A DNA stretch of 54,258 nucleotides from a virus. Taxonomy: Duplodnaviria > Caudoviricetes. The notes below the pieces were generated by a model. It did not search any database and was not told where the DNA came from. It worked only from the letters and a program-made list of their open reading frames with translations. Both the position numbers and the translations under genes were made by a program. The stretch is taken from positions 1 through 54,258 of the IMG/VR virus record IMGVR_UViG_3300012000_000021; one strand, given 5' to 3'. Positions 12,695 to 52,812 of this stretch are shown in pieces (within the stretch, counting starts at the first letter, position 1; each line of letters starts with the position of its first letter).

Positions 12695-12705
12695 GGTTTA
12701 TCTCC

Positions 12706-14426: not shown

Positions 14427-14444
14427 ACTTGTGACGTCTAGTGT

Positions 14445-14816: not shown

Positions 14817-14848
14817 GGTATGTATTCTCCTAAAGTAGATTGGTTATT

Positions 14849-14889
14849 GATGCCTGGGGACCCAGGAAGGAGTAGGGTCCCCAGACATC
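14849..14889 (-). other. intergenic stem-loop after the major capsid gene
   Basis: GATGCCTGGGGACCC / GGGTCCCCAGACATC 15-bp stem with no U-tract. Confidence 0.65.
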
Positions 14890-14902
14890 TGTAAAACTTG
14901 TC

Positions 14903-16030: not shown

Positions 16031-16069
16031 TTAGGTCAAGTCCTTTCTTAATTGGTTAGTTGGAAGGGA

Positions 16070-16843: not shown

Positions 16844-16973
16844 AGTAATCACCTATATTTTCTGGGTCTTTGTCCGAATGCCTTGCGGCGTGCCACTGGG
16901 TTTTATTACGAGATAATTGCATTACATTTCACTACAAAAATCTCGGTATACTCTGATTTTTTATCAGAATCTT

Positions 16974-18710: not shown

Positions 18711-18955
18711 TACTTCTTCTTATCTTTCTTGTTTTCTTTTTTAGTTTCAAGATGCTTTGACTTTTCTTTGTCTTCTTTTTTCTTAGCCATTGCAACTTTA
18801 CGTGTGGCTTCAGTCGTTTCAACAAACTGTCCACCGCTCTGGATGTACTTCTTGTGCACCCATGCTGATGCACCTGGATTTGGGTATGAGGAATACTTAG
18901 CACGAGCCATAGCAACGATAGTTGCATATAACTTTGGGTTTGCGGGTTTTCTCAT
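18710..18955 (-). CDS. small basic hypothetical protein
   Basis: PANPKLY...YP...A.AWV.K.Y...GG.F motif and a Lys-rich tail. Confidence 0.7.
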   Translation of the reverse strand: MRKPANPKLYATIVAMARAKYSSYPNPGASAWVHKKYIQSGGQFVETTEATRKVAMAKKKEDKEKSKHLETKKENKKDKKK

Positions 18956-19024
18956 ATCTCCTCCAAGGATAGCCTAACCACCCTCACACTAGTGTAAGGG
19001 TGGGTCGGCGTACTTACTAAACTA

Positions 19025-19420
19025 TTAGTCGTTTACGACTGTTGGTGACATGCGCTGTGTGCGGCCACCTGAACGAACTGCAGTCTCAAATTGAGCACCT
19101 GAATAGTCATTCATTGTTCCATGTGCAAATTCACCAAGGAATGTTGGTGCTTCTGTCCATGATGCTGATCCAACGTGTGCACGCTCTGAGAGAGTCTCAG
19201 CAGCGGTCTTTGTGTGTACTGGTGCGTTGCGGTTTGGACGGCCAGGTGCTGTTGCAGAACCTGACATCATTCCTACCTGGAAGTCTGCTGGCACATCTGT
19301 GTCAGTTGCGACTCCTTCTTCAAAACGTAGTGGTCCACGGCGAGTTGCGTTGCCAGACTCTTTCATTTCGTAGATCTGAGGTGCACGCTCTGGAAAGCGA
19401 GGTGCTGGTGAGATTGTCAT
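19025..19420 (-). CDS. conserved phage hypothetical protein
   Basis: 131 aa with AAGGAG RBS, between terminase and portal. Confidence 0.75.
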   Translation of the reverse strand: MTISPAPRFPERAPQIYEMKESGNATRRGPLRFEEGVATDTDVPADFQVGMMSGSATAPGRPNRNAPVHTKTAAETLSERAHVGSASWTEAPTFLGEFAHGTMNDYSGAQFETAVRSGGRTQRMSPTVVND

Positions 19421-19470
19421 ATTTACTCCTTACATAGTTTCCACCTTTTTGAGGTATCTATGTTGTTCAA

Positions 19471-24828: not shown

Positions 24829-24993
24829 TTATTCGTCTCGGTTACGCAGGGGATACGTGATAGCCCATGCAACTAGAGTTGCAACAATTGCATATCCAAC
24901 AATGGTTTTTGCGCTTCCATCAAGAACAACCCATGCAATGAACATGCCAAGGAGTGTCCAGAGTTGGTCAATCATGTCTTTTATTACTCTCAT
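24829..24993 (-). CDS. small two-TM membrane protein (not in the ORF track)
   Basis: Own translation MRVIKDMIDQLWTLLGMFIAWVVLDGSAKTIVGYAIVATLVAWAITYPLRNRDE. ATGA overlap with the 936-aa gene. Confidence 0.75.
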   Translation of the reverse strand: MRVIKDMIDQLWTLLGMFIAWVVLDGSAKTIVGYAIVATLVAWAITYPLRNRDE

Positions 24994-36493: not shown

Positions 36494-37153
36494 GTGGAAA
36501 AACAAACTCAAGACCTCACTAAATTTATCAATGCTGGAATAAAAAACTTTCAAGAGGCTAATGAGAAGAAGAGGGCAGCGGCTGCTCCACGCAAGGAACT
36601 AGAGCAAAAACAACGAGAAGAACGTCAACGGGCTGCTTTAATTTGTAAATTAACAAAATTAATCAAAAAATACATACGAGAACAAGAAAAAATACGTTTA
36701 AGTGCTCAACACGGAATAGTAATTGGCGATTACGATCGCTGTCGTAGAAACAATGGAGTGGCTTGTGCGCCTTGCAAGGCTGTTGCTGCTGAGTACGTCC
36801 GTGTCAAATGGGCTAGTGACCCCAAATATAAGGCTAAAGAAAAAGAATACTACAAAAATAACCCTGATAAAAGACATGTAAGCAAAAATAGGAAGCGTGT
36901 AAAGGGCGGAAAACACAGAGCGTACACACGAAATCAGATAATTAAACGAGATGGCTCTGATTGCTACCTATGCGGTGATCCTGTGGACTTCACTGCCCCC
37001 CATATACAAGGGCAACCTGGCTGGGAAACCTATCCACACGTAGAGCATGTAATCCCTTTAGCACTAGGTGGGGACGATACCCTCGAAAACGTCAAGTTAG
37101 CCCATGCAAAATGCAATATTGACAAGGGCCTTAGGCTACTGCCTTCATCCTAA
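36494..37153 (+). CDS. HNH endonuclease
   Basis: RDGSDCYLCG...HVEHVIPLALGGDDTLENVKLAHAKCN, plus an N-terminal HG...Y.RC...C.PC zinc module. TATACT lies 6 nt before the GTG. Confidence 0.9.
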   Translation: MEKQTQDLTKFINAGIKNFQEANEKKRAAAAPRKELEQKQREERQRAALICKLTKLIKKYIREQEKIRLSAQHGIVIGDYDRCRRNNGVACAPCKAVAAEYVRVKWASDPKYKAKEKEYYKNNPDKRHVSKNRKRVKGGKHRAYTRNQIIKRDGSDCYLCGDPVDFTAPHIQGQPGWETYPHVEHVIPLALGGDDTLENVKLAHAKCNIDKGLRLLPSS

Positions 37154-37246
37154 CCTCTCAACCATGGCTGACACTTGGCCGAGTCATGCGTGTAATCGCG
37201 TTAATGGTGGGGTGGTCAATTTATTTTTTACAATGTTTACATCATC

Positions 37247-37523
37247 ACCTGACTACTAATCAGGTGCGATGTTGTTAACACACGCTTTGTTATCAGGTTG
37301 TACCAATGATCTGATGACAATCTTGGTGACGATGCAACGATGCAACTTCGGCTACTGCTATCTGAATCAGGTTGCCTGTGTTCGCACAACCAGCCTGTCA
37401 GTCATCTCTCCCACTTGTTATCAGGTAGCAACTAACTATTCATCATCTGTCATCTCATCTACAGAGTTACTCACCTGTGTTATGTGTATCAGGTAATCGA
37501 TCTCTATTAACAGGTTGTACCAA
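37247..37523. repeat. non-coding array of (AT)CAGGT motifs
   Basis: ATCAGGT at 37259, 37292, 37366, 37420 and 37488; inverted ACCTG at 37247 and 37473; 13-mer CAGGTTGTACCAA at 37294 and 37511. Confidence 0.6.
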
Positions 37524-37616
37524 CTATCAGTACTAGATCACCAACCTAGCAATCAACTGGTGTATCTATCTCTCTCTCATTCTCTCTATCTAATCATCAC
37601 TATCGTTCTTTTACAG

Positions 37617-37641
37617 AAAGGGGGTGCTAACGCCCCCCTTT
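37617..37641. terminator. GC-rich hairpin, probable (bidirectional) terminator
   Basis: AAAGGGGGTG-CTAA-CGCCCCCTTT just downstream of the EndoVII gene. Confidence 0.55.
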
Positions 37642-37670
37642 AAAACCCCCTGTTACTGGAATGGGGCGAA

Positions 37671-38045
37671 CTATTCTTTTTGTTGATCTTGTTCTAAATA
37701 CGCAACGGCTCTTCGCAATACATACGAATCATCTTTTAGCATTCCAATCGCCCTGTTGCAGTTATGACATAACCAGCCACGAACGCGATCTGTATCGTGA
37801 TTGTGATCGATCACTAAATCACGAGTCAGGCTCTCTTCGTGGGCGTTACAAATTGCACATCGATAATCTTGTTTTTCTTTTATCTTCAATAAATCTTGGT
37901 AACTCATTTTGTAAATGCGTGACAATCTTTTCGGTTTCTTTTTGCGGTGTCTGCATGCACGACAAATGTTTCTGACATAGCCATAACCTGTTAATTCAAA
38001 TCGATCTAATGGCTTCTCAGTTTCGCAAGAGTTACAAATCTTCAT
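37671..38045 (-). CDS. endonuclease VII-family (recombination/homing) endonuclease
   Basis: CNSC..K...CRAC, then Q..RCAIC...LVIDHNH.T.RVRGWLCHNCNRAIG.LKD. Confidence 0.9.
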   Translation of the reverse strand: MKICNSCETEKPLDRFELTGYGYVRNICRACRHRKKKPKRLSRIYKMSYQDLLKIKEKQDYRCAICNAHEESLTRDLVIDHNHDTDRVRGWLCHNCNRAIGMLKDDSYVLRRAVAYLEQDQQKE

Positions 38046-38125
38046 CGGACTAATGTAATTGAACTTTCAACTACTCGCTCGGACTTACTTGGCGGAACTA
38101 GCGATCTTGGCAGTTACTTCGGGCT

Positions 38126-38143
38126 ATGTGACCCCGATCACAT
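38126..38143. promoter_or_regulatory. CRP/GlxR-family binding site
   Basis: aTGTGA-CCCCGA-TCACAt is a perfect TGTGA-N6-TCACA in the divergent intergenic region. Confidence 0.6.
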
Positions 38144-38351
38144 CTCACGCTCAAACTGACAAGATCAGCCTCACGCTCAATAGCCCTAATTTGGCTTCTA
38201 TGGGCTCTCTCAGGGCTTTACCCCCAATACTGGAATAAGAACCCTATTCATGGGGCGATCGTGGCTCTGCGCCTGATCTGTGAGGGGCGGTTTTCTGATC
38301 GAAACACGCTTTACCTCTCTTATTAGGGTGTACCAATTTGTCGTACAGGTG

Positions 38352-38360
38352 TGCTTTAAT
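38352..38360 (+). promoter_or_regulatory. possible extended -10 promoter for the large RNA/early operon
   Basis: TG-C-TTTAAT about 6 nt before the first stem-forming segment. Non-canonical hexamer. Confidence 0.35.
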
Positions 38361-38366
38361 TCTCTC

Positions 38367-39045
38367 AGTAGCGCACTCGATGTGTGACCACCGATTTCAG
38401 AATCCTCTAGGGGCAAATTGGTGAATCATTCAAAGTGAAAAAAGCGAATCGTTAAAACTGGTAACAGGCTTTAACAATAATTAAATAATAAATAAACATC
38501 GGTGAACTAACCTGCGAAAGATTTCCCATAGTGGACAGTACTTAGGTGACGATCAATTTATTTATTTATTTTTCATAGTGACTAAGAAACTGCGATTTAT
38601 TTATTCGGAATTAGTTATCACTTAATAACTAGTTACTAAGGCAGACATTGTGCGGTCGGACTATACGATGCAATAACACCGAAATAAATAATCGATTCGA
38701 TCATGCTTGCTACGGCGATGCGAATGTAAAAAAAGTAATTACATTCAAGCGGTATTTCAAGGGCGCGAATTAACGATCACGAAACTGATTGTGAATAGCA
38801 GTAGGGCTTAGGGAATGAAGTGTGGAGATTGTCATTGTAATTAGTGACGGAATGTCTCTACTAGTGAGTGCAGGTGGTAATCAATCCAACCGATTGCACA
38901 TTGAAACTAGTTACAAGAAAAAACAATCAGCACTTCTGCTTATGTGTTAATAGTGATCGATCACCATAAATAGTCAGCGAACTATCTTGGTGATCGATCG
39001 CTATGGATACATAACTCGATGTATTCAATCCACTAGTAACTACAA
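38367..39045 (+). ncRNA. candidate large structured non-coding RNA (~670 nt)
   Basis: Essentially ORF-free and AT-rich, with more than 10 nested or long-range stems. Imperfect pairs in the main stems are G-U on the + strand. Confidence 0.7.
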
Positions 39046-39063
39046 AAGGAAACGGAAAACAAA

Positions 39064-39237
39064 ATGAAACAACAAACATTCATCGATGCAAAGGGCAACA
39101 TCGTTGCTCGCGGTCGTATTACTGAGATCGCTATCGATCTATTACTAAATGACGGAACTCGCTTCTACTCAACTAAATCAGATAACTACACACTCGACTT
39201 CATCAAGAAACTAGACATCGTAAAGGTTGCTAAATAA
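39064..39237 (+). CDS. small early protein
   Basis: MKQQTFIDAKGNIVARGRITEIAIDLLL...KVAK after an AAAGGA RBS. Confidence 0.7.
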   Translation: MKQQTFIDAKGNIVARGRITEIAIDLLLNDGTRFYSTKSDNYTLDFIKKLDIVKVAK

Positions 39238-39534
39238 ATGACAACAACACGAACATCAAACACAAACGCTGGCGATCTAATTGCTAATCGCGTTGCATTC
39301 ACAGGTAACAACCTTTACGGCGTTGTTACTCCTTACGATTCAGTTATCTATACAACAGGGCAATTACCGATTGAGTTTCAAGATCAACTTAAATTAGATC
39401 GACCTGACTTTATTGTGTACTCGTATTCAACACCGATTGCTTGGCATTCTAATAGCGGTTGGTTTATGCCTAATTGCAAATACTCAGTTACAACATCAAA
39501 ACATCAAAACTATGTACGAAGGGCGGTTGCATAA
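39238..39534 (+). CDS. conserved phage early protein
   Basis: IVYSYSTPIAWH...YSVTTSKHQ motif, common in phage early genes. Confidence 0.8.
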   Translation: MTTTRTSNTNAGDLIANRVAFTGNNLYGVVTPYDSVIYTTGQLPIEFQDQLKLDRPDFIVYSYSTPIAWHSNSGWFMPNCKYSVTTSKHQNYVRRAVA

Positions 39535-39535
39535 C

Positions 39536-39817
39536 ATGGGTCGACTACACGCAGAGGAATTAGCAAGCGGTGAGTTTGTTATTGATCTCGAACAACAATT
39601 AGCAATTCACTTCTCTAGTAATTGCTATCCACCAATTCCGCACTTCATGATCGCGGTTGCTCAGGAAGCAATCAAGGCGGTTAACGCCGAGCAATACGAT
39701 CTCGAAATTGAATTACCTGCTGGTGTGCAATTTCGTAACTCAACAACTGTTACTGCGATCAACGCGGTTGACGGATTATTCCTAAATGCGTGGATAGATA
39801 GAGATGAGGATTACTAA
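39536..39817 (+). CDS. hypothetical early protein
   Basis: Start MGRLHAEE at 39536; LAIHFSSNCYPPIP motif. Confidence 0.75.
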   Translation: MGRLHAEELASGEFVIDLEQQLAIHFSSNCYPPIPHFMIAVAQEAIKAVNAEQYDLEIELPAGVQFRNSTTVTAINAVDGLFLNAWIDRDEDY

Positions 39818-39912
39818 ATGACGATCTTTATTATTGCGATCATCGCTGGCGTTATTGGCGTACTGATTGAAAACTTATTTCACGAACTCTCACAAAAAAA
39901 TCGGGGTATCTA

Positions 39913-40179
39913 GTGAGCCAATTCAATCTCGATGAACTCGGATTACTTCACACAATGGTTGAAGTGTCACTCGACAACGCACTAGAGAATGGCGCACCAC
40001 CACAGATCGTTGCGGTGCTTCAATCTGTACTACCAAAGATTGAATCTCGTATTGAAGAAGAGTGCAACATCTTCAATGAGTTTCAAAAACTAACTACACA
40101 ACTCGATGATCTGCACCTTGCATCACAGATCATTGTGCAGAACCCTGATGCAGTTACAACCGACTACCAAACAAACTAA
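39913..40179 (+). CDS. hypothetical early protein
   Basis: 88 aa, helical. Confidence 0.65.
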   Translation: MSQFNLDELGLLHTMVEVSLDNALENGAPPQIVAVLQSVLPKIESRIEEECNIFNEFQKLTTQLDDLHLASQIIVQNPDAVTTDYQTN

Positions 40180-40203
40180 TCACCTAGAGAAAACGGAAAC
40201 CAA

Positions 40204-41085
40204 ATGACTACAGAAAACAAATCCCTATTCATTCCTACATTGGAAAAGACATCGCACTACATACCACGCACCTTTACTGGTGGCGTTACAGAAGATGCCA
40301 TGTACGACTTCGCACTTGCTCACAACATGAACATCTTGATTGAGGGCGATGCTGGAACTGGTAAAACAACTTCGGCACTTGCTTACGCATCAAAGCGACA
40401 CATGAACTTCTTCGCTGTTCCATGTAACTCAGCGATCGACTTCACTCAGTTAATCGGTGGCTTGTTCCCTGATGCTGACGGCAAACTAAAGTGGGTTGAC
40501 GGCGCGATCACAAAGATCGTTCGTGAGGGTGGCTTGCTACTTATCAACGAACTCAACAACGCACCTAAGAACCTGTCTCAGTACCTCATGTCACTACTCG
40601 ATGATCGCCGTTCAATTACCCTCATGTCACATGACAACGAAGTGATTACGGCTCACCCTGATCTTCTAGTGGTTGCAGATCAGAATCCAAACTATCGTGG
40701 AACTCAATTACTAAATGAGGCGTGGAAAGATCGCTTCGAAATTAAATTGCGCTTCGATTACGACAACACCATTGAGAAGAAGATCATCACATCTTCATCT
40801 CTACTGGAACTCGCAAACGGAATGCGATCAACATCTCGCAGAGACGATCACGCATCAGATCGTGGAACTATCTTCGAGACACCTGTATCACCACGCATTC
40901 TAAAAACATTCGAGAAGTTAGCAAAGGGCTTGTCATTCGATTTCGCTTGCGATGTATTCGTAAACAATTTCACAGATGAAGAGCGACCTGCGGTCAAGAT
41001 GCTTCTAGAAGGTACTTCATACAACATTCGAGAAGAACTCGGACTCGATGTTGATGCGATCACAACTGAACACGATCAGGCTTAA
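40204..41085 (+). CDS. MoxR/CbbQ/CobS-family AAA+ ATPase
   Basis: GDAGTGKTT, WVDG.I, LLINELN (Walker B variant), NPNYRGTQLLNEAWKDRF and SPR sensor II. Confidence 0.9.
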   Translation: MTTENKSLFIPTLEKTSHYIPRTFTGGVTEDAMYDFALAHNMNILIEGDAGTGKTTSALAYASKRHMNFFAVPCNSAIDFTQLIGGLFPDADGKLKWVDGAITKIVREGGLLLINELNNAPKNLSQYLMSLLDDRRSITLMSHDNEVITAHPDLLVVADQNPNYRGTQLLNEAWKDRFEIKLRFDYDNTIEKKIITSSSLLELANGMRSTSRRDDHASDRGTIFETPVSPRILKTFEKLAKGLSFDFACDVFVNNFTDEERPAVKMLLEGTSYNIREELGLDVDAITTEHDQA

Positions 41086-41087
41086 CA

Positions 41088-43088
41088 ATGTGTGCCTGTG
41101 GTAAATGTCCGTCATGCAAACAATGGGGAGTAACAATGAACTATGACGAAGCAATCGAAGAGTGGGAACTCGACATTCTTGGTGAGACTCGTGAGTCACT
41201 ACGATCACAAGCGATCAAGGCAGAAGAGAAGAAACAACGACTAGAGCGATTCACACAATTCTTCGGTCGTGTTAATTCTGCATTCACTTTCCGCAAAGTG
41301 ATTGTGACTGTTGAGAACTCTCCTATGGAAGCACCTGCTTGGTCAGGTGCATCAACTGTCACTTTCAACTCTCGTGTCATTGGTGATCTCAATGATGCTA
41401 AATCAATCGCTGGTATCAAGGGGCTTGATCTTCACGAGATCAGTCACATTCTTTATACATCTCGTGAAGGATCAGAAATCTTTGATTATGTACGAGATAA
41501 CAATTACTTCATGGCATACAACGCACTTGAAGATCAGAGAATCGAAACTCTCTTTACATCAAAGTATCCGTCAACGATCGACTGGTTTACCGCCACGATC
41601 TTGATTCACTTCGTTGATAACAAAGAGGCTTTCACTAACTCTTATCCGCTATTGCGTGGTCGTAGATACCTGCCTGTTGATCTAAGAGCGCAATCTCGTA
41701 ACGCCTATCCTGAACAAGATCAGATCGATGAAATCTGTGCAGTAGTCGATGAGTACCGCACTCTTCTATTCCCTGCTGATACTGAAAAAGGAAAGGAACT
41801 TATTGCGCGATTTAATGAGTTACTTCCAAAAGGTAATGGCAACGGCTCAGGTAATGGCGAAGGTGGGTCTGTGCGACCTGCTGAGGCTGGTGAAGAGGGC
41901 GATGTAGTCATTCGTATCAATGACCCATTCGGTCATGGCAAGCGACCTTCTGAGGGCTTGGAATCGTCTGCTAATTCACGACCTGTTCCACCAAAGAAAC
42001 AAGAGAAAGATCGTGATCGCTCACAACAACTCGACAAAGAAGATGATGCAGAACTGGCTGAGCAACTGAAATCAAAACCTGTTATCGATGTTGACATCAA
42101 CGACATTGATTTTGATTTTGATTTCGATGATGCAGATTCAGATTCAGATCAGGATTCAGATCAAGATTCTGATTCACATCAACCTTCTGATTCTGCTGGT
42201 TCTTCTGCTGGCGAATTAATCGACACATTGATTGGTGATCTATTAGAAAACATTCTTGATTCTAATGAAACCGAAATCAATGACATCTTGCGACAGATTG
42301 GTGGTTTACCTTCTCTTACTACCAACAATTCAAAAGAGCCTGAGTTAGATTCATTTCATGATCTTGCCCCTGATGCAAATACATTTCAAGCATCGTTGTC
42401 ATTCGGTCGTGAGTTAGAGCGATTGAGATCATCGTTCGACCCTGCATGGGATAGATACGAGTCACAAGGTCGCTTGTCTGCACATCGCTACTTGCGTGGT
42501 GATGAACTCGATACTGTATTCGATCAATGGAATGAAGGTCGTGAAGATGCGACTGAGATCGAATGCGTGATCTTGTTAGACAACTCAGGTTCAATGTCAG
42601 GACACAAAGCCTCTAGTGCGTACAAAGCCATGTACGCGATTAAGAAGGCACTTGATCGTGTTAACGCAAATACAACTGTTATCACTTTCAATGATCGTGC
42701 TAACACCCTGTATCGTGCAACTGATCGCGTTGGTAACACAATTCGTGATGCTGGTACTGGTGGTGGAACAAATGCTGACGGCGCAATTAAGTACGCAACT
42801 AAACTGCTTGCCGAAACTGAGAAGCCTGTTCGTATCTTCTTCGCAATTACTGACGGAGAATGGTCGGGCGATCAGAAAGACAATCACGAAACAATCAAGC
42901 GCATGGCTCGTGCTGGTGTGCTTACTGCATTCGCGTACATTCCTGAAAGTACTGAACCTGTAGAACTAAATGCACAGAAGTCTCACTATTGCGAGATCGC
43001 TTCTGTTGTTCGTAATCCATTCGATCTTGTTTACATGGCGAAATCAATCGTGAAGTACGCGATCTCTCGCCGTCTCGTAAGCAACTAA
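41088..43088 (+). CDS. CobT-like partner: HExxH metallopeptidase-like N-domain, acidic linker and VWA domain
   Basis: LHEISH...NALEDQRIE; MIDAS DNSGSM, GGT and ITDG. Alternative start at 41136 after GGGGAG. Confidence 0.88.
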   Translation: MCACGKCPSCKQWGVTMNYDEAIEEWELDILGETRESLRSQAIKAEEKKQRLERFTQFFGRVNSAFTFRKVIVTVENSPMEAPAWSGASTVTFNSRVIGDLNDAKSIAGIKGLDLHEISHILYTSREGSEIFDYVRDNNYFMAYNALEDQRIETLFTSKYPSTIDWFTATILIHFVDNKEAFTNSYPLLRGRRYLPVDLRAQSRNAYPEQDQIDEICAVVDEYRTLLFPADTEKGKELIARFNELLPKGNGNGSGNGEGGSVRPAEAGEEGDVVIRINDPFGHGKRPSEGLESSANSRPVPPKKQEKDRDRSQQLDKEDDAELAEQLKSKPVIDVDINDIDFDFDFDDADSDSDQDSDQDSDSHQPSDSAGSSAGELIDTLIGDLLENILDSNETEINDILRQIGGLPSLTTNNSKEPELDSFHDLAPDANTFQASLSFGRELERLRSSFDPAWDRYESQGRLSAHRYLRGDELDTVFDQWNEGREDATEIECVILLDNSGSMSGHKASSAYKAMYAIKKALDRVNANTTVITFNDRANTLYRATDRVGNTIRDAGTGGGTNADGAIKYATKLLAETEKPVRIFFAITDGEWSGDQKDNHETIKRMARAGVLTAFAYIPESTEPVELNAQKSHYCEIASVVRNPFDLVYMAKSIVKYAISRRLVSN

Positions 43089-43090
43089 CT

Positions 43091-43186
43091 GTCACTCTCT
43101 AGGTGACTACATGAGATGCGCTATTCGTGGAAGGCTGGCGCAGATCATAAGTGAGTGGGGCTTGTTTTTGGCTTGCCCCACTCACT
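43091..43186 (+). other. intergenic triple hairpin
   Basis: GTCAC/GTGAC, TGCGC/GCGCA and a 12-bp AGTGAGTGGGGC/GCCCCACTCACT stem. Confidence 0.55.
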
Positions 43187-43219
43187 ACCCAAACAATTAC
43201 AACTAAGGAGAATAAAGTA

Positions 43220-43837
43220 ATGAAATCAGCAGACCTACAAATCGGTATTAAGTACGGCGTTATTCCTTCATGGGATTACTCATCACAAGATAAGAAAGAC
43301 CCTGCAAAGGTGCAACGCAGAGCCGTTGCTAACGCAGAGTTAGTCTCACTAGAGAAGTACGAATACAAGGTGTATCGATCAGATAATCCTGATGATGCAC
43401 AATTTACTTCTGCACCAAAGGGAAGTAGATCAGTCGGTTACATCGTCAAATCTTCTGACTGGGCTGGTAACACACAGGGTGACATCTACTGGATAGCGAG
43501 AGCGCAGGACATCGTTGCTGAGTATGCAACTCTTGAAACTCGTTGGACTAAAGAAGAAGCCGAAGAGAAGGCTCGTGAGGCTCAATGGAAGGCAGAACGC
43601 GAAGCCAAAGAACAACAAGAGAAGATTGAACAGGCAAACGCTCAACGATCTATTGATGCGGTCAAAGAATCTCTTCGATCAATCATCGGTTCTCGTGCAG
43701 ACAAACTTGATTTCGAGATTCGTAATCGCCGTCAAGAAAACGGAGATTACAAACTAAGCGGTGCTTGCACTATCGATGTACGCACTCTTCAATCACTAAT
43801 CGAGAAGGTTCTCGAAGCAAGAGACATGGTGGCATAA
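43220..43837 (+). CDS. hypothetical early protein
   Basis: Start ATG 43220 (MKSADLQIG) after AAGGAG. Confidence 0.75.
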   Translation: MKSADLQIGIKYGVIPSWDYSSQDKKDPAKVQRRAVANAELVSLEKYEYKVYRSDNPDDAQFTSAPKGSRSVGYIVKSSDWAGNTQGDIYWIARAQDIVAEYATLETRWTKEEAEEKAREAQWKAEREAKEQQEKIEQANAQRSIDAVKESLRSIIGSRADKLDFEIRNRRQENGDYKLSGACTIDVRTLQSLIEKVLEARDMVA

Positions 43838-44542
43838 ATGAGTTACTTCTTAGATCGATTCGTAGCGATTCAAGATAAGTACTACAAGAACTATCAAGGC
43901 AATACGCATCACTCAACATGGTTGCGTAACAAGCGGTTCGATCACATGATTGAACTAAAACAATTACCGAATACCTATCAAGAAATTGAATACAAGGGGC
44001 ATTCAATCATTGTGCAGGGCATTCACTATCAATGGTGCGACATTTTCGATGTAAATGGGAATCACTTCTCTTCTGTACCACGAACATCAGAGATTAAATC
44101 TCGTGGTGATCTGCAATTCAGTACGATCTTTCTTGCATGGGCTTGGCGTATTGACGGACAACACACAGATAAGCCATTGAACTGGAATAGTGAACACGCA
44201 GTTATCTGTGGCAGTCATTCAACAGACAAGATCGAGAAAACGATCAAACTCGCAAAGAAGCGCATCGATCTTGAAGCAAAGATCGTTGCGGTTCAAGATC
44301 AACTGATCGCTATTGCTGGTGAGCGCATGGTGTACTCAACAAACATGAGTGCATACAACCCATACAACGCCGTAATTAACGATCAGGTGTTTATTCAGGG
44401 GTTTGGTCGGTTGCGTAAGGGCATCATCGTTGAGACAACTGGATCACGATTCGTTGTTGCTTATGTAACTCCCTCTAATCATCATGATCTGAAATACAAG
44501 ACACTTCCACTTAGTCGCTTATACATAAAGGAGAATGCGTGA
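43838..44542 (+). CDS. hypothetical early protein
   Basis: 234 aa with an SH3-like C-terminus. Confidence 0.75.
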   Translation: MSYFLDRFVAIQDKYYKNYQGNTHHSTWLRNKRFDHMIELKQLPNTYQEIEYKGHSIIVQGIHYQWCDIFDVNGNHFSSVPRTSEIKSRGDLQFSTIFLAWAWRIDGQHTDKPLNWNSEHAVICGSHSTDKIEKTIKLAKKRIDLEAKIVAVQDQLIAIAGERMVYSTNMSAYNPYNAVINDQVFIQGFGRLRKGIIVETTGSRFVVAYVTPSNHHDLKYKTLPLSRLYIKENA

Positions 44543-45015
44543 CAACTAAAAGCCGAAAGTCTGCTAAAACTATTGAGCGAGAAAACTTTCTTGCTATTGG
44601 TATTAAGGCGTGCAATCGGTGTGACAACCTGTACGAACTAAGTAACTTTCGATCTGCAAAAACTAAATCGGGAGTAGTTTCGTATTGCATTCCTTGTGAA
44701 GATGCGTACAAAGTAGAGTGGCACTTGAAGCGCAGGATTCAGATCAAGGAATGGATTTACAATCACCTAAAATCTAATCCTTGCGTTGATTGTGGCGAGA
44801 AAGATGTACTCGCACTCGACTTCGACCATGTAAGAGGCGCACGAAAGCGTTACAACATCGCTCATGCGTTCATGCTAAGTAACATGACGATCAAGCGATT
44901 ACAAACTGAGATCGCAAAGTGCGATGTCCGTTGCGGTAAGTGCCACAGAATCCGTACACACATGGCTAGTAAGTCATGGAAATACCGAATGGCTATTGAG
45001 AAAGGAGATGCTTAA
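44539..45015 (+). CDS. HNH endonuclease-like protein
   Basis: CVDCGEKD..ALDFDHV.G...EIAKCDVRCGKCHRIRT. Confidence 0.85.
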   Translation: MTTKSRKSAKTIERENFLAIGIKACNRCDNLYELSNFRSAKTKSGVVSYCIPCEDAYKVEWHLKRRIQIKEWIYNHLKSNPCVDCGEKDVLALDFDHVRGARKRYNIAHAFMLSNMTIKRLQTEIAKCDVRCGKCHRIRTHMASKSWKYRMAIEKGDA

Positions 45016-45182
45016 TTGTTAACAGTAAGAGGCTGGATTGTTCTTGTAATTATTCCTGCATTGATCTTGGTATCGCTATTTACTTATGTAACTCGTGATG
45101 TCTGCTATGTGGGCGAAGGCGGTAACTGGTTGGGCTATGGCTCATGCACAAAGATGATCGATGAAGTGACAGGAGAAAACAA

Positions 45183-45380
45183 ATGATTGATTCAGAACTT
45201 GAAACTCTACTTGCTGATGTTGTTCGATCTAAATGGGGCGATAGAGGTATTGAGTATCTTGTTGGTGCGATCTCTAGCATCACAACTGCTGACCAACTAA
45301 CTGCACTAATCAATGCAAATCTTGATTCTCGTGTAGTTAGAACTTCACCTGACGGCTCACTATTCTTGGGAGATAACTAA
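45183..45380 (+). CDS. hypothetical early protein
   Basis: AGGAG RBS, 65 aa. Confidence 0.65.
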   Translation: MIDSELETLLADVVRSKWGDRGIEYLVGAISSITTADQLTALINANLDSRVVRTSPDGSLFLGDN

Positions 45381-45616
45381 TGATCGCAACTGCAAAAGAA
45401 GCAATAGAGATGATCGAGAAAATGTATGCAACAGACATGAGTGAACAACTAGTAATTACTTGGTGGGATTCAACTGATTTCCAAGATCGTGATCTCGATA
45501 AGGCATTCAATGTCTGTGAAGATGCACTTGATGTCTGTATCGGACACATCAGCGACACAATCGCTGACTTCGTTCCTGCTTTAAGTGAAGGAGATTCAGA
45601 TGCCAATAACGCTTAG
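45380..45616 (+). CDS. hypothetical early protein
   Basis: TAATG coupling, 78 aa. Confidence 0.65.
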   Translation: MIATAKEAIEMIEKMYATDMSEQLVITWWDSTDFQDRDLDKAFNVCEDALDVCIGHISDTIADFVPALSEGDSDANNA

Positions 45617-45928
45617 ACAAGCAAAACTGCTAGATCAAAAGTATCGTCACATTCGAGATTGTTTTGAGTGTGGCGATCAACACGATGTCAATGAGATGTA
45701 TCCAAAAGACGGATACTTAATCTGTGAACCTTGTTCGCAGGGAAGATAGGAGATAACCAATGGGATACGCACAGATCGTTCGTAGGGTAGAAGCCCACGA
45801 ACTAACTAATTGTGATGATTGCGGGAATAACGAACTTACTTCATCAGGTAAATACTTCGAAGAACTAGGTAGTCAAAAGATACTGTGGTTCTGCTTTAAC
45901 TGCATTCATAATCCAACACAGTAACTTT

Positions 45929-46186
45929 ATCGAGTAGGGGTCAACGCAGGGTTAAACGACAGGGTTAATTCATTTCCCTATCTCCTTACCTGCTAAGGGC
46001 GATCATGATCGGCTTCTATGATTGCCGTAGTCGTACCTGCCCCTACTCGATTTCACTATTGATAGAGATCGTCAACACCTAGCAGACTACGGCAGACTGA
46101 AAAGGTGTTATGAAAATCTTGCAAGATCGTTGATCGATTTCAGACCAACGCACAACATCGTTCTACTTCTTGACGATCTCTATCAA
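45929..46186 (+). ncRNA. candidate two-domain structured RNA
   Basis: A 12-bp stem (45929-45940/46040-46051) and a 17-bp perfect stem (46059-46075/46170-46186) each enclose a multibranch interior. Confidence 0.6.
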
Positions 46187-46216
46187 CTATTTAATTAACC
46201 TAGAGAGGATTACAAC

Positions 46217-46390
46217 ATGGATACACCACACCCATTCACACTAGAAGAAGTAAATGCAATCCTTGTTGCACGATTCAATGGCGAATCGTTGCAGAGCGTT
46301 GCTGATCGATTTAACACAAATCGTGTACTGATTAGAAGAATAGAAAGTAAATACATGAACCGATTCAAAGTCGGACACACTTACAATTAA
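46217..46390 (+). CDS. small HTH protein
   Basis: FTLEEVNAILVARFNGESLQSVADRFNTNRVLIRRI; GAGGA RBS. Confidence 0.65.
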   Translation: MDTPHPFTLEEVNAILVARFNGESLQSVADRFNTNRVLIRRIESKYMNRFKVGHTYN

Positions 46391-46486
46391 GGAGAAACTA
46401 AATGACATCAATTCCACAAACTAAATGTAATGACTGCTTGGAATGGGTTGAGTACGAAACTGTCCACGAATGCAAAGGAGAAATAA

Positions 46487-46828
46487 ATGAGTGAACTATC
46501 ATCACACCAAACTGATCTGATTAAGTCGATCACGATCGCTAACGAGTTTCTAAAGATCGTTCGCGGATTCAAAGTAGATTCTGATCGCAAAGACAGTCTG
46601 CCTCAGGAGATCAAGGAGTACCTAGCCAATGAACACCTGAACTCAATCATGGAAGATCAAGAGATCGAACCTGAGATGTTGATTTGGGGATTCCTGCACA
46701 TGATCGAGATTCTCTTGAAGTATGCAGAGTTAGACCCTGAGGACTTAACGAGTGTCATGGATTCGTTTATGAAGTATGTGATCGAAAACCCTGACCAATA
46801 CAGAGATCGGAGTAACGATGAAGATTGA
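46487..46828 (+). CDS. hypothetical early protein
   Basis: 113 aa, AAGGAG RBS. Confidence 0.7.
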   Translation: MSELSSHQTDLIKSITIANEFLKIVRGFKVDSDRKDSLPQEIKEYLANEHLNSIMEDQEIEPEMLIWGFLHMIEILLKYAELDPEDLTSVMDSFMKYVIENPDQYRDRSNDED

Positions 46829-47093
46829 GATCATCAATGCACCATGTCAGTCAGCAGGTGTTGACCCTGAGTTATTCTTTCCTGACCCGACAGAGTACGA
46901 AAAGATTCAGCGAGCCAAAGCAGTATGCAATCAATGTCCTGAGATCACAAAGAATAAATGTCTCTCATTCGCACTAGACAATGGTGTGCAGTATGGAATC
47001 TTCGGCGGTCTAACAGATCACGACAGAGCCCTACTACGCCGTAGAGAGAATCGAAAATACAAGCAGTATGTATCAGTAGTGGGGGAGTATTAA
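46818..47093 (+). CDS. whiB: WhiB-family transcription factor
   Basis: C...DPELFFP...AKAVCNQCP...CLSFAL...GIFGGLT..R: four Cys plus the G(I/V)(W/F)GG turn. Confidence 0.93.
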   Translation: MKIEIINAPCQSAGVDPELFFPDPTEYEKIQRAKAVCNQCPEITKNKCLSFALDNGVQYGIFGGLTDHDRALLRRRENRKYKQYVSVVGEY

Positions 47094-47218
47094 TTATGTA
47101 CACAAAGAATCAGGTAGTAATCGAAGTCAATGGTGGCGTTGCAGAAGTAACTCGTTGCCCTAATGACATCGAAGTAATCATCATCGATTACGACAACGAG
47201 ATCAATGGAGATAACTAA

Positions 47219-47428
47219 ATGATGAATCCAAATGACATAGTGCTATTTACTCGTGAAGAAGCAAATCAATTAGTGAGGAGAGTGCTTACTGATGATGAAT
47301 GGCTAAAGATCAGAGAGTGGATTACTTCTGACGATAATCTGTGGGAAGTGATCGATGAATGTATTCAGAACACGATTAGTGAGGTGATTATCGATGAAGA
47401 TCAACAAGAAACTGGTGAATCGAATTGA
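47219..47428 (+). CDS. hypothetical early protein
   Basis: 69 aa, GGAG RBS. Confidence 0.65.
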   Translation: MMNPNDIVLFTREEANQLVRRVLTDDEWLKIREWITSDDNLWEVIDECIQNTISEVIIDEDQQETGESN

Positions 47429-47616
47429 AGGATTGGCTCACTACTACCGACATCGCACAACAAACAGGGCTAAAGATCGACACGATCTATACCTATCGAA
47501 AGCGCAACACCCTTCCCGAACCCGATCACATGATCGGCAATCGACCACTATGGAAGCAAGAAACAATCGATAAGTGGAACTCTTATCGAATAACACAAAT
47601 AGAAACGGAGAAATAA
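47425..47616 (+). CDS. AlpA/excisionase-like winged HTH
   Basis: WLTTTDIAQQTGLKIDTIYTYRKRNTLPEPD.MIGNRPLW. Confidence 0.8.
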   Translation: MKDWLTTTDIAQQTGLKIDTIYTYRKRNTLPEPDHMIGNRPLWKQETIDKWNSYRITQIETEK

Positions 47617-47844
47617 ATGGTTGCAAATGTAATCAGTAGTCAAACCTCAGCAACAGATCATGTTATTGAGTTTCCAATGAACGGAAATGTTTACACCGCC
47701 AAAGTATTTATTGGTGAGTGGGGCGTTGATGTTGATTGGTTTATTGGTGAGGACTTTATTGCGATCGATGATCGCTGGAAGGTTCTGCCAACTGATCTCT
47801 ACAATCTCGATGATTTGGATTGGGAAGAGATTCTCTATCCATGA
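47617..47844 (+). CDS. hypothetical early protein
   Basis: 75 aa, GGAG RBS. Confidence 0.65.
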   Translation: MVANVISSQTSATDHVIEFPMNGNVYTAKVFIGEWGVDVDWFIGEDFIAIDDRWKVLPTDLYNLDDLDWEEILYP

Positions 47845-47996
47845 GTACCTACAAAGTAACTTTTGTATGGACACGATCAATCGAAGTCGAATGCGATTCC
47901 GAAGATCAAGCGAATCAACTCGGTGAACTATGGCTATCCGAAGCAGTACCGCAGATCGCTCACGACACCGAATGGGATAGTGAGATCGTCAACTAA
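47841..47996 (+). CDS. small early protein
   Basis: MSTYKVTFVWTRSIEVECDSEDQA...EIVN; ATGA overlap. Confidence 0.65.
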   Translation: MSTYKVTFVWTRSIEVECDSEDQANQLGELWLSEAVPQIAHDTEWDSEIVN

Positions 47997-48072
47997 CTCT
48001 TAGCCCTGATCTGGGGCGATCTGAGAGTTACTTCAAGCGCACATAAGCAGATTCCCTAAGCCCACAGTCACT

Positions 48073-48111
48073 ATTGCCCCTAGCCCCTGATCGGGCTAGG
48101 GGCTATTTTTT
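48073..48111 (+). terminator. intrinsic terminator ending the early operon
   Basis: GCCCCTAGCCC-CTGATC-GGGCTAGGGGC followed by TATTTTTT. Confidence 0.85.
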
Positions 48112-48120
48112 GCATTCGAA

Positions 48121-48151
48121 GTTACTCACCAGTAACATTACTCAGCAGTAA
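48121..48151. promoter_or_regulatory. tandem palindromic operator-like sites upstream of the integrase
   Basis: GTTACT-CACC-AGTAAC immediately followed by ATTACT-CAGC-AGTAAC. Confidence 0.55.
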
Positions 48152-48168
48152 CATGAAGGGGGAAGATC

Positions 48169-49431
48169 ATGGCTTATGTCGTAAAGCGTGGGGATAGGTT
48201 TACAGGCTATTACCGAAAGGGCGGTAAACGCCTCTCAGCAGGTACATGGGGCTCGACTATCGATGCCATGTACCACGCCTCAAAAGCAGAGGCATCGGGT
48301 GGCAGCGAGCCTTCTAGGGCTGTATTTACCCTATCGACCTACATCGATTCATGGCTTCCCACCGCCGATCTCATGCCGATCACTCGCAAGGGCTATCGAT
48401 CAGTCATTGACCGCTATGTGATTCCAACTCTTGGAGATCGCAAAGTAACTTCGATCGATACCCGTACCATTCAAAAGTTACTTCAAGCCCTGAGATCAGA
48501 AGGAGTCGGTTCAGCCACCCTCAATCAGATCAAGGCATCACTAGGGTCTGCCTTCTCCCAGTTAGTCGATACAGGAGAATTAACTCAGAACCCTACTCAT
48601 GGGATTCGTATTAAGGCGAAGTATTCGGACATCTCAAATGTTGTAGAACCCGAAGAGTTTAAAGCGATTATTCAGCATCTACCGACCGAAGGGGCGCAGT
48701 TATTCGCCCGATTCTTAGTCGCATCAGGTTGCCGATTCGGGGAAGCAACCGAGATCAGGGTCAAGGACATCAACCTGAGGACAGGGGAAGTCTATGTCCA
48801 AAGGCGAGTCAGCGATCTAGGGTCAAGCCATACCAGCAGGTTTCTAGTCGTAGAAGCCACAAAGTCGGGTCATAAGCGAAGCCTTATGTTAAGCAAAGCC
48901 CTACTACAAGAGATTCAGGGTTATGTCATAGCAAAAGCCCTATCAAAAGATGACCTGTTGTTTCCAAGAACGATCATCTTAACAACAGGTAAACTAGAGG
49001 CTTCTCGTGGAGAAATGTCTAAGCGACCATTCGCCAAAGACGGAAAACTGTTCCAGCATGGAACTCTGTACGCCTATACACATGGGCGTTGCCGATGCGA
49101 GGCTTGTAGAGAGTCGGTGCGAAAGCACAGGCAAAAGACAAAGCCATACCAAAAGCAACAGAGGTTCATCGACCATACGAGTCACCTACCACGAGATGTA
49201 TGGAGAACTACATGGAACAAGGCAATAGCCAAGTCAGGCATCGGTTGGAGTCCTAGAACCCATGATCTAAGGCACGCTAACGCTACTCAACTTCTAAAAA
49301 GCGGAGTAGATGTGCATGAGGTCAAGGAACGCTTAGGGCATCAGTCGATAAAGACGACAGAGCGATACCTACATCGCCTTCGTCACAACCAGTCAAAGGC
49401 ATCAGAAAGTGTCAATGACTTTTTGGAGTGA
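48169..49431 (+). CDS. int: tyrosine recombinase/integrase with an internal zinc-binding insert
   Basis: SGCRFGE (R), TKSG (K), HDLRH, LGHQS and ERY; insert HGTLYAYTHGRCRCEAC. Confidence 0.92.
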   Translation: MAYVVKRGDRFTGYYRKGGKRLSAGTWGSTIDAMYHASKAEASGGSEPSRAVFTLSTYIDSWLPTADLMPITRKGYRSVIDRYVIPTLGDRKVTSIDTRTIQKLLQALRSEGVGSATLNQIKASLGSAFSQLVDTGELTQNPTHGIRIKAKYSDISNVVEPEEFKAIIQHLPTEGAQLFARFLVASGCRFGEATEIRVKDINLRTGEVYVQRRVSDLGSSHTSRFLVVEATKSGHKRSLMLSKALLQEIQGYVIAKALSKDDLLFPRTIILTTGKLEASRGEMSKRPFAKDGKLFQHGTLYAYTHGRCRCEACRESVRKHRQKTKPYQKQQRFIDHTSHLPRDVWRTTWNKAIAKSGIGWSPRTHDLRHANATQLLKSGVDVHEVKERLGHQSIKTTERYLHRLRHNQSKASESVNDFLE

Positions 49432-50012
49432 TGATGAATCTAACAAGAAGAGGCAAGATCGTATTCGGATCGCTATTTACGGCGATGTTCGTTGGTAGTG
49501 GGCTAGTGGTATTGCCACCAGCCTTTAGCCCTACGCAAGCCGAAGCACAGATCATGCAGAAGCAATACCAAGAGCGAGCCCTAGCCAAGTACGAGAATGC
49601 AGACAAACTAACTCAGACACAGTTAGTCGATCTGCTTAGCGCAGTTGGCTTCAAAGGACAAGCCTTACGCTATGCGTGGGCAATCGCTATGAAAGAGTCA
49701 CATGGAAACCCTCTCTCCCACAACGGCAATCGCAAGACAGGGGATAACTCATTCGGGTTGTTCCAAGTCAACATGGTTGACTCATTGGGACAAGATCGCA
49801 GGGAAAAGTTCAATTTAGAGTACAACGCTCAACTGTTGAATCCTGTGGTGAACGCCAAGATCGCTTACTTCATGAGCGCAAAAGGCAAAGACTGGAGATC
49901 ATGGAAAGGTGTCCACAATCCTGTAGTAAAAAAGTGGTTAGCACAGTTCCCTGAAGCACATGCAAAAGCCCTAGCAAAAGCGAAAGCGAAAGCACTAGGA
50001 ATAACAGAGTAA
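49428..50012 (+). CDS. membrane-anchored lytic transglycosylase (SLT/lysozyme-like)
   Basis: N-terminal TM/signal segment; AIAMKESHG (catalytic Glu), SFGLFQVN, LLNPVVNAKIA and W.SW. Confidence 0.85.
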   Translation: MMMNLTRRGKIVFGSLFTAMFVGSGLVVLPPAFSPTQAEAQIMQKQYQERALAKYENADKLTQTQLVDLLSAVGFKGQALRYAWAIAMKESHGNPLSHNGNRKTGDNSFGLFQVNMVDSLGQDRREKFNLEYNAQLLNPVVNAKIAYFMSAKGKDWRSWKGVHNPVVKKWLAQFPEAHAKALAKAKAKALGITE

Positions 50013-50022
50013 GCAATAGGAG

Positions 50023-50048
50023 AAGCCCCGTCAGAAATGGCGGGGCTA
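50023..50048 (+). terminator. hairpin terminator
   Basis: AGCCCCGTCA-GAAA-TGGCGGGGCT with a GNRA loop and a weak U tail. Confidence 0.65.
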
Positions 50049-50102
50049 TCTTCGAAGTAACTCTACCTGGCAGCCAGGTGAGTTAGTTAGTTAGGGGAGC
50101 AC

Positions 50103-50615
50103 ATGGCAAGTGGCGGTATGCAGGACTGGCAGTCAATAAGTCATAGCAAAGCAAAGCCATACCAGAAGCCATACCAGAAGCAAGAGCAATTCCCAAAGCA
50201 ACACCAGAAGGACGAGTGGACTCAACCCGAACTGCCATTTACTGATAAGCCGTGGCGTTCTGATAAGTATCTTACTGATACTGAAATAGAAGAACTCTTT
50301 TGGCGCAAATTAGTGCAGTTGGGTTGGAGATGGCAGACATACGGCGAGAACTTAAAGAGCAAGAACATTGTGTTGCCTTGCCCTTACTGCAATTTACTAA
50401 TGGATAGCCACACCATCATCACAGAAACAAACTCTAAAAGAATGCAAGACAAATATTATTGCGAACAAGTTTTAAAGAGGCACAAGGGTCTTGAATGCAA
50501 AGCCATACTAGAAGACGAAGCAATACCAGAAGCCATATCAGAAGCCATACCAGAAGCATGTTACAAGTGCCATGGTGAAGGCATCTTGCAATCAGGAGAA
50601 GAGTGCGACTGCTAA
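50103..50615 (+). CDS. hypothetical zinc-binding protein carrying the 12-bp repeats
   Basis: CPYC and CYKC...CDC; KPYQKPYQ and EAIPEAISEAIP segments. Confidence 0.6.
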   Translation: MASGGMQDWQSISHSKAKPYQKPYQKQEQFPKQHQKDEWTQPELPFTDKPWRSDKYLTDTEIEELFWRKLVQLGWRWQTYGENLKSKNIVLPCPYCNLLMDSHTIITETNSKRMQDKYYCEQVLKRHKGLECKAILEDEAIPEAISEAIPEACYKCHGEGILQSGEECDC

Positions 50616-50616
50616 A

Positions 50617-52641: not shown

Positions 52642-52812
52642 AACCCCTACCATTTCTATAAATGTCTAAATACCCCTCTGTGGGTTGCTTAGTATTGCGC
52701 TTGGAAACCTATCATGCATCTGTTAACTTTGCGAAGTACTCTCGCCAAAAGAAAATGGTCAACTACGGGTGAGATATGTTTTACACCCTGTTAACTGCTG
52801 TTATCAGATAAG

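Follow-up and report, generated by a model that had tools for sequence, protein, structure and literature searches.

The window analyzed here is a 54,258-nucleotide stretch of DNA, IMG/VR record IMGVR_UViG_3300012000_000021, which is one linear virus record rated by CheckV as about 54% complete. It is a fragment of the genome, about 95 kb long, of an uncultured freshwater actinophage, and its segment 37178–50065 is the rightward early module of that phage. This module lacks dozens of short words of the restriction type that are abundant in its flanks, and it carries an excess of GATC. There is strong support for restriction as a selective force on this segment in particular because the lost words are of restriction type, are missing on both strands, are still being selected against, and form a set that differs from lineage to lineage. 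We consider it probable, on balance, that the purged module represents the first-exposed, and likely the first-entering, DNA of the phage. GATC is, we hold, under a host-dependent pressure of its own that acts at the level of DNA.

The underlying principle is already known. Selection against restriction sites on first-injected DNA has been shown by experiment only in a few cultured phages, T5 and recently Murciavirus. What is new is the depth and sharpness of the signature, its spread over a family of uncultured phages, and its coupling to an excess or absence of GATC; our literature searches found no paper describing a signature of this phage family. The same logic appears to hold in these lake actinophages, in which the purge is far deeper and its edges are sharp within about 20 bases. 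If so, the leading, early-exposed part of an uncultured phage genome could be found from sequence alone, the restriction repertoire of unidentified hosts could be read from the purged words, and a map could be drawn of where anti-defense genes should lie.

Purge of restriction-type words

An earlier note on this stretch, made from its letters alone, had reported long gaps in GGCC and CCWGG. Exact positions bear out both gaps, and the pattern is larger than the note saw. GGCC is missing from 37178 to 53841 (last copy at 37177, next at 53842), with 59 copies outside the segment, and CCWGG is missing from 37017 to 50065 (last at 37016, next at 50066), with 84 outside. ACGT (0 in the segment vs 100 outside) and ATAT (0 vs 70) are absent as well, TATA is reduced to 6 copies vs 72, and GGNCC, GGNNCC, CCNGG, CCNNGG, CASTG, GGATG, and about 50 further words also have zero copies in the segment. 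Reduced to minimal forbidden words, the list holds 59 members, none of which occurs in 37178–50065. Only 15 of the 64 six-base palindromes are present and 49 are absent, compared with 36–43 present in five late windows of equal length; AGATCT, GGATCC, and TGATCA are among the absent ones despite 169 copies of GATC. Five tetranucleotides are gone from the module, along with 45 pentanucleotides that those five do not explain. The missing pentanucleotides are mostly reverse-complement pairs, such as GGATG/CATCC, GACGC/GCGTC, and CACTG/CAGTG, which points to selection on double-stranded DNA.

The spacing rules of the lost words fit known type II specificities. GG and CC separated by zero, one, or two bases have counts of 0, 0, and 0 in either order (GG N0–2 CC and CC N0–2 GG), with normal counts from N3 up, and GCNGC occurs once where 28 copies are expected. 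Among REBASE sites with an expectation of at least 5, 35 of the 80 palindromic sites are absent from the segment, as are 13 of the 259 non-palindromic ones. Permutation of synonymous codons in the 22 early open reading frames (ORFs) gives an expectation of 29.5 ACGT, 31.8 ATAT, 17.3 GGCC, and 6.7 CCWGG, and the observed count of each is 0. The late genes are partly depleted in the same words, with observed counts below the codon-shuffle expectation for ACGT (86 vs 131), ATAT (54 vs 97), AGCT (0 vs 165), and CCGG (0 vs 35). AGCT and CCGG have no copy in the whole 54-kb window, nor in a complete relative of 94.7 kb (G004, which holds loci L017–L021). Thus, the same pressure acts genome-wide and is much stronger in the module.

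Because the word list was drawn from the segment itself, the zero count inside it is partly circular; independent evidence for the purge comes from how often each word would be expected, from how common the words are in the flanks, from the sharpness of the edges, and from replication in relatives. Up to 37177 the forbidden words are densely packed, and they reappear at 50066, placing the boundaries at 37177/37178 and 50065/50066. A terminator-like hairpin precedes the right edge by 20 bases.

Relatives were collected from IMG/VR with the VWA (CobT-like) protein of the module, encoded at 41088–43088 (+), as the query, which led to 16 related loci. The source habitats are freshwater and lake metagenomes, and the runs holding the DNA come from 11 studies. 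When the search for the signature is repeated in related genomes, as the earlier note had proposed, the same void with normal flanks is found in 5 of the 16 loci (L001, L002, L004, L005, and L012; 84–94% protein identity), and further loci have partial or different voids. Six relatives differ from the window module by 1039–1514 substitutions. Projected onto the window, these substitutions create 3–28 forbidden words, compared with 130–193 when the same substitutions are placed at random, indicating that selection against the words is still acting. The word sets are lineage-specific. The module of L014 is also without GTAC, TGCA, and GATC, and L015 lacks AGCT inside its module only; of the 64 six-base palindromes, the L014 module (1–10500) keeps 4 and the L015 module (4000–10081) keeps 1. 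At the level of four-base palindromes, 8 of 16 are absent from each of these two modules.

These comparisons bear on two other explanations of the purge. The words could be avoided because the phage's own early nucleases destroy host DNA while the module alone is present. Three genes for HNH or endonuclease VII-like proteins are at hand (36494–37153, 37671–38045, and 44539–45015), and T5 degrades host DNA from its first-step DNA (A1 annotation, T5 record). However, at least 59 unrelated words would need many specificities, and the words correspond, down to their exact spacing rules, to known type II sites. Moreover, the word sets vary by lineage, yet the HNH gene at 44539–45015 has a tblastn match in 16 of 16 related loci. 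We regard self-inflicted selection of this kind as very improbable.

Alternatively, the segment could be foreign, whether a recent mosaic module, an integrated element, or an assembly chimera. Its sharp edges, its own integrase, and its slightly lower GC content would be in keeping with such an origin, as would the loose contig ends seen in several runs (37246–37286, 49438, 50011–50078, and 50648) and the differences between strains at both edges. Against this stands the identity to relatives, which is equal in module and flanks (0.86–0.90) and argues against recent import. In addition, the same junctions occur in independent assemblies, contigs bridge both edges (run X1 records 2 and 8, run X3 record 21), AGCT and CCGG are missing inside and outside the edges alike, and cultured relatives share the layout. 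We give a foreign origin hardly any credence.

Dinucleotide composition also differs between the two parts of the window. CpG is depleted in the late region (rho 0.64; CGCG 9 copies; TCGA 81 vs 104 expected) but not in the module (rho 1.04), and CC is scarce in the module (rho 0.61).

Genome end and order of entry

The phage is a relative of the Streptomyces myovirus BRock (Borockvirus) and is not a podovirus. The two share a major capsid protein (MCP; window gene at 14903–16030, −) with 63% identity, a portal (16974–18710, −) with 60%, a terminase (19471–21051, −) with 53%, and a DpdA-like protein (52813–54258, −; BRock gp36) with 31%. These four genes and that of the class II ribonucleotide reductase (50617–52653, −), which is the first leftward gene past the module, stand in the same order and on the same strand in both phages. 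The BRock record is linear and opens with a 12-kb rightward module of small genes, all other genes being leftward, with an HNH gene as the last before the other genome end. Almost all genes outside the module are leftward in the complete relative and in the window too, and the DpdA-like gene, 4 kb past the module in BRock, lies a few kb past it here. Alone3, also a Streptomyces phage, is a mirror image of this layout; both cultured phages have an inward-facing module of 10–12 kb at one physical end. The ends of BRock are set by a 221-bp terminal repeat seen as double coverage (PMC7453282). The module proteins of BRock and Alone3 are unrelated to those of the window module save for endonuclease VII: the endonuclease VII-like gene of the window is 51% identical over 67 amino acids to one in the Alone3 terminal module.

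Based on this collinearity, a genome end should lie between the HNH gene that ends at 37153 and the first gene of the rightward operon, which begins at 39064, and thus at the left edge of the purge or slightly inside it. A physical end within the non-coding stretch at 38.0–39.1 kb is one possible placement. The contig of L001 starts at window position 38421, and those of L008, L009, L010, and L014 start close to this stretch; the other end of the L001 contig is at a different place, and the stretch itself is strain-variable. The ends of the window are a separate matter. An ORF at 1–321 (−) runs off one end and the DpdA-like ORF begins exactly at base 54258, indicating that the record is a fragment whose two ends are not joined in the phage. 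At the inner border of the module, the hairpin at 50023–50046 and the 13-base palindrome CCTGGCAGCCAGG at 50066–50078, which contains the first two CCWGG past the gap, are candidate injection-stop elements. The earlier note had proposed that the segment enters the cell first, before any anti-restriction acts. Selection by restriction is strongly supported, as described above, and first entry is plausible, an inference from the collinearity with BRock and Alone3 and from the hairpin at the edge.

The closest parallel is the first-step-transfer DNA of T5, in which small early genes fill about 10 kb at the genome end that enters first; the T5 record annotates the first 10,219 bases in this way. 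As in T5, restriction sites are missing from the region of the window phage yet present elsewhere in the genome, and HNH genes are found in or near the region. T5 shows the palindrome deficit in mild form, with 31 distinct six-base palindromes in its first 10.2 kb vs 41–47 in each of the next three windows. In the published account cited here, restriction sites count only in the first-step DNA of T5, and restriction motifs of Murciavirus matter in its leading region only (PMC12455610). The purge of the window module is far deeper than that of T5, with 15 of 64 palindromes left and five tetranucleotides gone, and the T5 region has neither an integrase nor an excess of GATC (26 vs 36.8 expected). 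In T7-like phages (Autographiviridae, including Murciavirus), early genes run inward from the first-entering end to a terminator, as they would in the window phage. The motif at stake there is a single type I motif, whereas here dozens of type II-like words are lost.

We propose that the module begins at a physical genome end, would read inward to the terminator, and would be the first DNA in the cell, as are the first-step region of T5 and the leading regions of T7-like phages. Ongoing purifying selection keeps about 60 restriction-type words out of it, the proposed reason being that the phage, at a time when it has no protection yet, depends on the survival and expression of this part. The remaining DNA would arrive later or under the shield of early products, and could keep most of the words with partial depletion only. 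Since AGCT and CCGG are purged from the whole genome, as is GATC in some lineages, the shield presumably fails against the enzymes that read those words, or those enzymes are very common. The counts, the edges, the selection, the conservation among relatives, and the gene order are observed, whereas the order of entry, the shield, and any benefit of GATC are inferred.

It is also possible, if rather unlikely, that the whole genome enters at once and that the module is purged only because intact transcription of its genes has to precede the making of a shield. An early protein, proteins injected along with the DNA, or a DNA modification for which the DpdA-like gene is a candidate could provide that shield, and late cuts would be rarer or repairable. 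This explanation accords with a purge that ends 20 bases past a terminator-like hairpin, with the partial depletion of the same words in late genes, and with genes past the module that face the other way, which fit T7-type pull-in poorly. The DpdA-like (queuine tRNA-ribosyltransferase-like) gene at 52813–54258 (phrog_887, E 5.5e-56) has no Pfam, NCBIfam, or PDB sequence match, but it is conserved, being found in 4 of 5 further records. On the other hand, any cut in a linear genome would normally be lethal, and temporal protection of DNA that is already inside the cell would be hard to explain. ATAT, AATATT, TTATAA, and RAATTY, which we counted as words without G or C, are also purged specifically in the module, and modification of guanine cannot shield them. 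Nor does the supply of preQ0, which 7-deazaguanine modification by a phage DpdA would need besides the enzyme, appear to be encoded: QueC is absent and GTP cyclohydrolase I has no match above the family cut-off in 5 of 5 records each.

Several observations weigh against our preferred reading, in which the module is first-exposed DNA purged by restriction. In BRock, the module has not been purged, with 45 of the 64 six-base palindromes present, and is not rich in GATC. A collapsed long terminal repeat was considered and rejected: contig depth, a rough measure because the 22 runs listed are all available as assembled contigs, is flat (run X3: 23.4 vs 22.5–28.6), which indicates that there is no T5-like long terminal repeat. 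The window phage is thus without the roughly 10-kb repeat of T5, the repeat of BRock being 221 bp. Homologs of T5 A1, A2, and dmp were not found when six pre-early proteins were searched by tblastn against the window and the complete relative (best E 0.58), and profile searches of the module proteins revealed no known anti-restriction gene in the module. Because the genes past the module face the opposite way, transcription cannot draw the remaining DNA into the cell in the manner of T7. The module also carries an integrase, so that the phage may live as a prophage; BRock has none (PMC7453282). ATAT is not among the 617 REBASE sites that were screened. SMRT (single-molecule real-time) sequencing detects 5-methylcytosine poorly. 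In one study that used this method, seven freshwater actinobacterial genome bins showed no methylated motif (PMC6329791).

Excess of GATC

Positive pressure on GATC, which the earlier note had singled out as the unusual part of the signature, is supported by exact counts and by codon controls. The hand counts in that note are correct (11 in 39001–40000, 17 in 47001–48000, 3 in 1–1000, 3 in 15001–16000, and 5 in 51001–52000). Overall, 37181–50060 (12,880 bases) holds 169 copies, or 13.1/kb, compared with 156 in the other 41,379 bases (3.8/kb). Among the 169 copies, 61 occur as CGATC and 60 as GATCG, and GATCGATC is found 3 times.

The 22 early ORFs hold 130 copies. Permuting codons within each gene gives 85.8 ± 6.0 (maximum 105 in 1000 runs); the earlier note had said beforehand that disappearance of the enrichment under such a shuffle would speak against it, and the excess survives. 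Recoding the early ORFs with late-gene codon usage gives 65.1 ± 6.2, a permutation barred from all 59 forbidden words gives 91.0 ± 5.4, and late codon usage combined with the constraint of the purge gives 64.5 ± 5.4. The GATC excess is not a by-product of the purge, and the shift to codons GAT, ATC, and CGA is likewise unexplained by it. Non-coding DNA of the module has 39 copies in about 2.85 kb, a density equal to that of the ORFs. Of the 136 tetranucleotides, none is more over-represented in the early genes than GATC (z 7.6), and the excess is confined to GA and TC at spacing 0 (169 vs 73; 57–85 at spacings 1–8). The flanks of GATC exclude RGATCY, TGATCA, and GATCC. The late genes are neutral (137 vs 126.5).

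The relatives show that excess and purge are separable, as the complete relative shows an excess of GATC but no extra purge of ACGT, ATAT, and GGCC. Six relatives have no GATC in either arm of the locus. Among the sampled loci, GATC is either absent across the whole locus or enriched in the module, and no module is unenriched otherwise; L003, which gained GATC, has 18.2/kb. A tree of the VWA protein implies 2–3 changes of GATC state, of which the well-supported branches alone force one. By tblastn across the related loci, no module gene tracks the GATC state.

A number of more specific explanations were tried and rejected. A longer motif behind GATC is not indicated, as the top hexamers are GATC with its allowed flanks. 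No helical phasing is evident, spacing being close to exponential with a coefficient of variation of 0.90. A Dam shield over overlapping sites is not supported, with only 38 of 102 TCGA and 17 of 27 ATCGAT overlapping GATC. Phage DpdA enzymes with GA motifs have been described, but a tie between DpdA and GATC fails because the DpdA-like gene is 79–81% conserved in three records without GATC in the loci analyzed. The cyanobacterial HIP1 octamer GCGATCGC does not occur in the window, whether inside the module or outside it (0 copies each).

It could be that the excess has no present function and is a fading relic, or that it reflects a compositional or repair bias toward GAT and ATC. The maximal-order Markov ratio of observed to expected GATC is only 1.19, GAT and ATC are themselves enriched, and GATT/AATC is enriched 2.1-fold. 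Terminal branches show 8 gains of GATC vs 35 losses, and in six comparisons the conservation of GATC ranks from 1 to 13 among 24 letter permutations and is not consistently better. A similar, about four-fold GATC excess is described as unexplained for subcluster B3 mycobacteriophages, also actinophages, whose hosts are reported to be without Dam methylation (PMC4841201). Theirs is genome-wide and includes GGATCC, whereas the window phage has its excess in the module only, where GGATCC, AGATCT, and TGATCA do not occur. A relic or bias is harder to reconcile with the rank of GATC as the most over-represented tetranucleotide, with an excess at spacing 0 only and at the same density in non-coding DNA, with a purge that does not generate it (64.5 ± 5.4 expected), and with sampled loci that are either GATC-free or enriched in the module, including L003 at 18.2/kb after its gain. 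We see a relic or bias as a real but minor possibility.

Our view that GATC responds to the host suggests a separate pressure laid over the purge. In hosts of this lineage, GATC would be read by a marking or binding factor and not by a cutter, whereas hosts of sister lineages would cut it. In a more specific form of this proposal, which we offer tentatively and think rather unlikely, two opposite pressures operate: words that can be cut are removed, and GATC is multiplied as a protective mark or protein recruiter that acts on a fraction of the sites, for example by GpsATC phosphorothioation. Phosphorothioation is able to target GpsATC, and only some of the sites receive the mark (PMC6435447). 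More copies of GATC would mean more marks on the first DNA, with unmarked copies free of cost, and a shift to hosts that cut GATC would lead to its purge genome-wide. Were this correct, the GATC state of a module, zero or saturated, would report the type of host defense. The excess matches no known mechanism and points to a GATC-reading system of the actinobacterial host that helps the phage.

Methyl or phosphorothioate marks had been raised in the earlier note, with a Dam-like methyltransferase or Dnd genes as what to look for, and no phage gene of either kind emerged. The methyltransferase families PF02086, PF01555, and PF00145 (Dam-type, N6/N4, and C5) have matches in 0 of 5 phage records each, including the complete 94.7-kb genome, and they did match control genomes. 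The DndC-type family (PF01507) is also found in 0 of 5. DndE (PF08870) is found in 0 of 5 as well, but its control matched no control genome, so this last result is uninformative. With no phage gene of the Dam-type, N6/N4, C5, DndC-type, or DndE families, any mark on GATC would be host-made.

Genes and elements of the module and its surroundings

The segment is the single long rightward block of the window, and the endonuclease VII-like gene (37671–38045, −; phrog_2633, E 3e-31) is its sole leftward gene. In order, the module consists of a non-coding leader with repeats, the endonuclease VII-like gene, a non-coding stretch of about 1 kb, small ORFs, an AAA_5 (MoxR/CobS-like) ATPase (40204–41085, +), and the VWA protein. 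These are followed by two proteins without assigned function, an HNH endonuclease (44539–45015, +; phrog_2255, E 1e-29), small ORFs, a WhiB-like regulator (46818–47093, +), an excisionase-like DNA-binding protein (47425–47616, +; phrog_597 and phrog_66), a strong terminator, a tyrosine integrase (48169–49431, +), and, as the final gene, an SLT-type lysozyme-like protein (49428–50012, +; PF18896). WhiB, an actinophage marker, is present in 5 of 5 related records, which identifies the phage as an actinophage. The integrase is present in 13 of the 16 related loci; no prophage relatives were found in genome contigs with the VWA protein as the query. Another HNH endonuclease gene (36494–37153, +; PF01844, phrog_338) lies just beyond the left edge and is not purged, with forbidden words inside it.

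Of the two proteins without assigned function, the second is a conserved early protein of 234 amino acids (43838–44542, +). Its fold is predicted with a pLDDT (predicted local distance difference test score) of 87.2 and has no PDB match at E ≤ 0.001. Beside it is a 228-amino acid ORF (43151–43837, +), listed with a GTG start. Its true start is probably an internal ATG near 43220, judging from relatives that have stops upstream.

Two terminator-like hairpins stand in the right part of the module. The strong one, a hairpin and then a T run (48076–48103, +), is 5′ of the integrase gene. That at the right edge, AGCCCCG..CGGGGCT (50023–50046, +), has a weak T tail and was missed by a simple scan.

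The left part of the module is rich in repeats. An AT-rich repeated element, TCAATTTATTT..TACAATG, has copies at 37216–37235 (+) and 38553–38580 (+), both assigned to repeat families D6 and D8, and a 27-nucleotide direct repeat, D1, has its reference copy at 37285–37311 (+) and further copies at 37502–37528 and 38315–38341. The non-coding stretch of about 1 kb (38046–39063) is partly AT-rich and holds repeat families D4, I1, and I6. Operator-like palindromes, GTGATCGATCAC, occur in it at 38953 and 38990, with another copy at 37803. The variability of this stretch among strains is illustrated by run X3, in which 38597–38767 is replaced.

RNA contigs from one metatranscriptome cover mainly the left part (36238–40203), apart from short pieces at 44.4 and 50.3 kb; where the segment has no such cover, this is not evidence of silence. 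One RNA contig starts at 37215 (37215–37785, run X9 record 24), at the first copy of the AT-rich element, and another starts at 38549 (38549–39213, run X9 record 26), at the second. These starts are a weak hint of early transcription starts at the two repeat copies. Matches to sigma-70-like promoters are depleted in 36000–51000 (8 vs 29.9 ± 5.1 in shuffles), TA N3 TA occurs 11 times in the module vs 42 expected, and GGAGG/CCTCC, the Shine–Dalgarno core and its complement, has zero copies there.

When up to one mismatch is allowed, the window contains 16 matches to the motif GAAGTAACTC vs 4.2 expected, with copies at 41817, 43840, 47144, 48025, 48118, and 50054, among others. Inverted copies stand on either side of the terminator 5′ of the integrase gene, and one copy forms the final 10 bases before the right edge. 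In run X3, one contig of low depth (depth 2) links 48137 to 38055 with 34 other letters between, and both sides are near copies of this motif. The junction could be a strain rearrangement, a circle, or a repeat artifact.

Searches of a more general kind gave no match for tRNA genes in the window, for Rfam families across 36–51 kb, or for megablast against the phage collection with the segment or with bases 1–20000. Among the leftward genes, one encodes a 936-amino acid protein (24990–27800, −) that has no PHROG or Pfam match and a weak NCBIfam match only (E 0.003, 16.9 bits, cut-off 70). The minus-strand genes also include collagen-like fibers and an endolysin. Amid the tail genes is a rightward island (5381–8189, +) that carries genes for a TPR protein, a class I methyltransferase-like protein (PF13578), and a glycosyltransferase of family 25, and that may serve in virion glycosylation.

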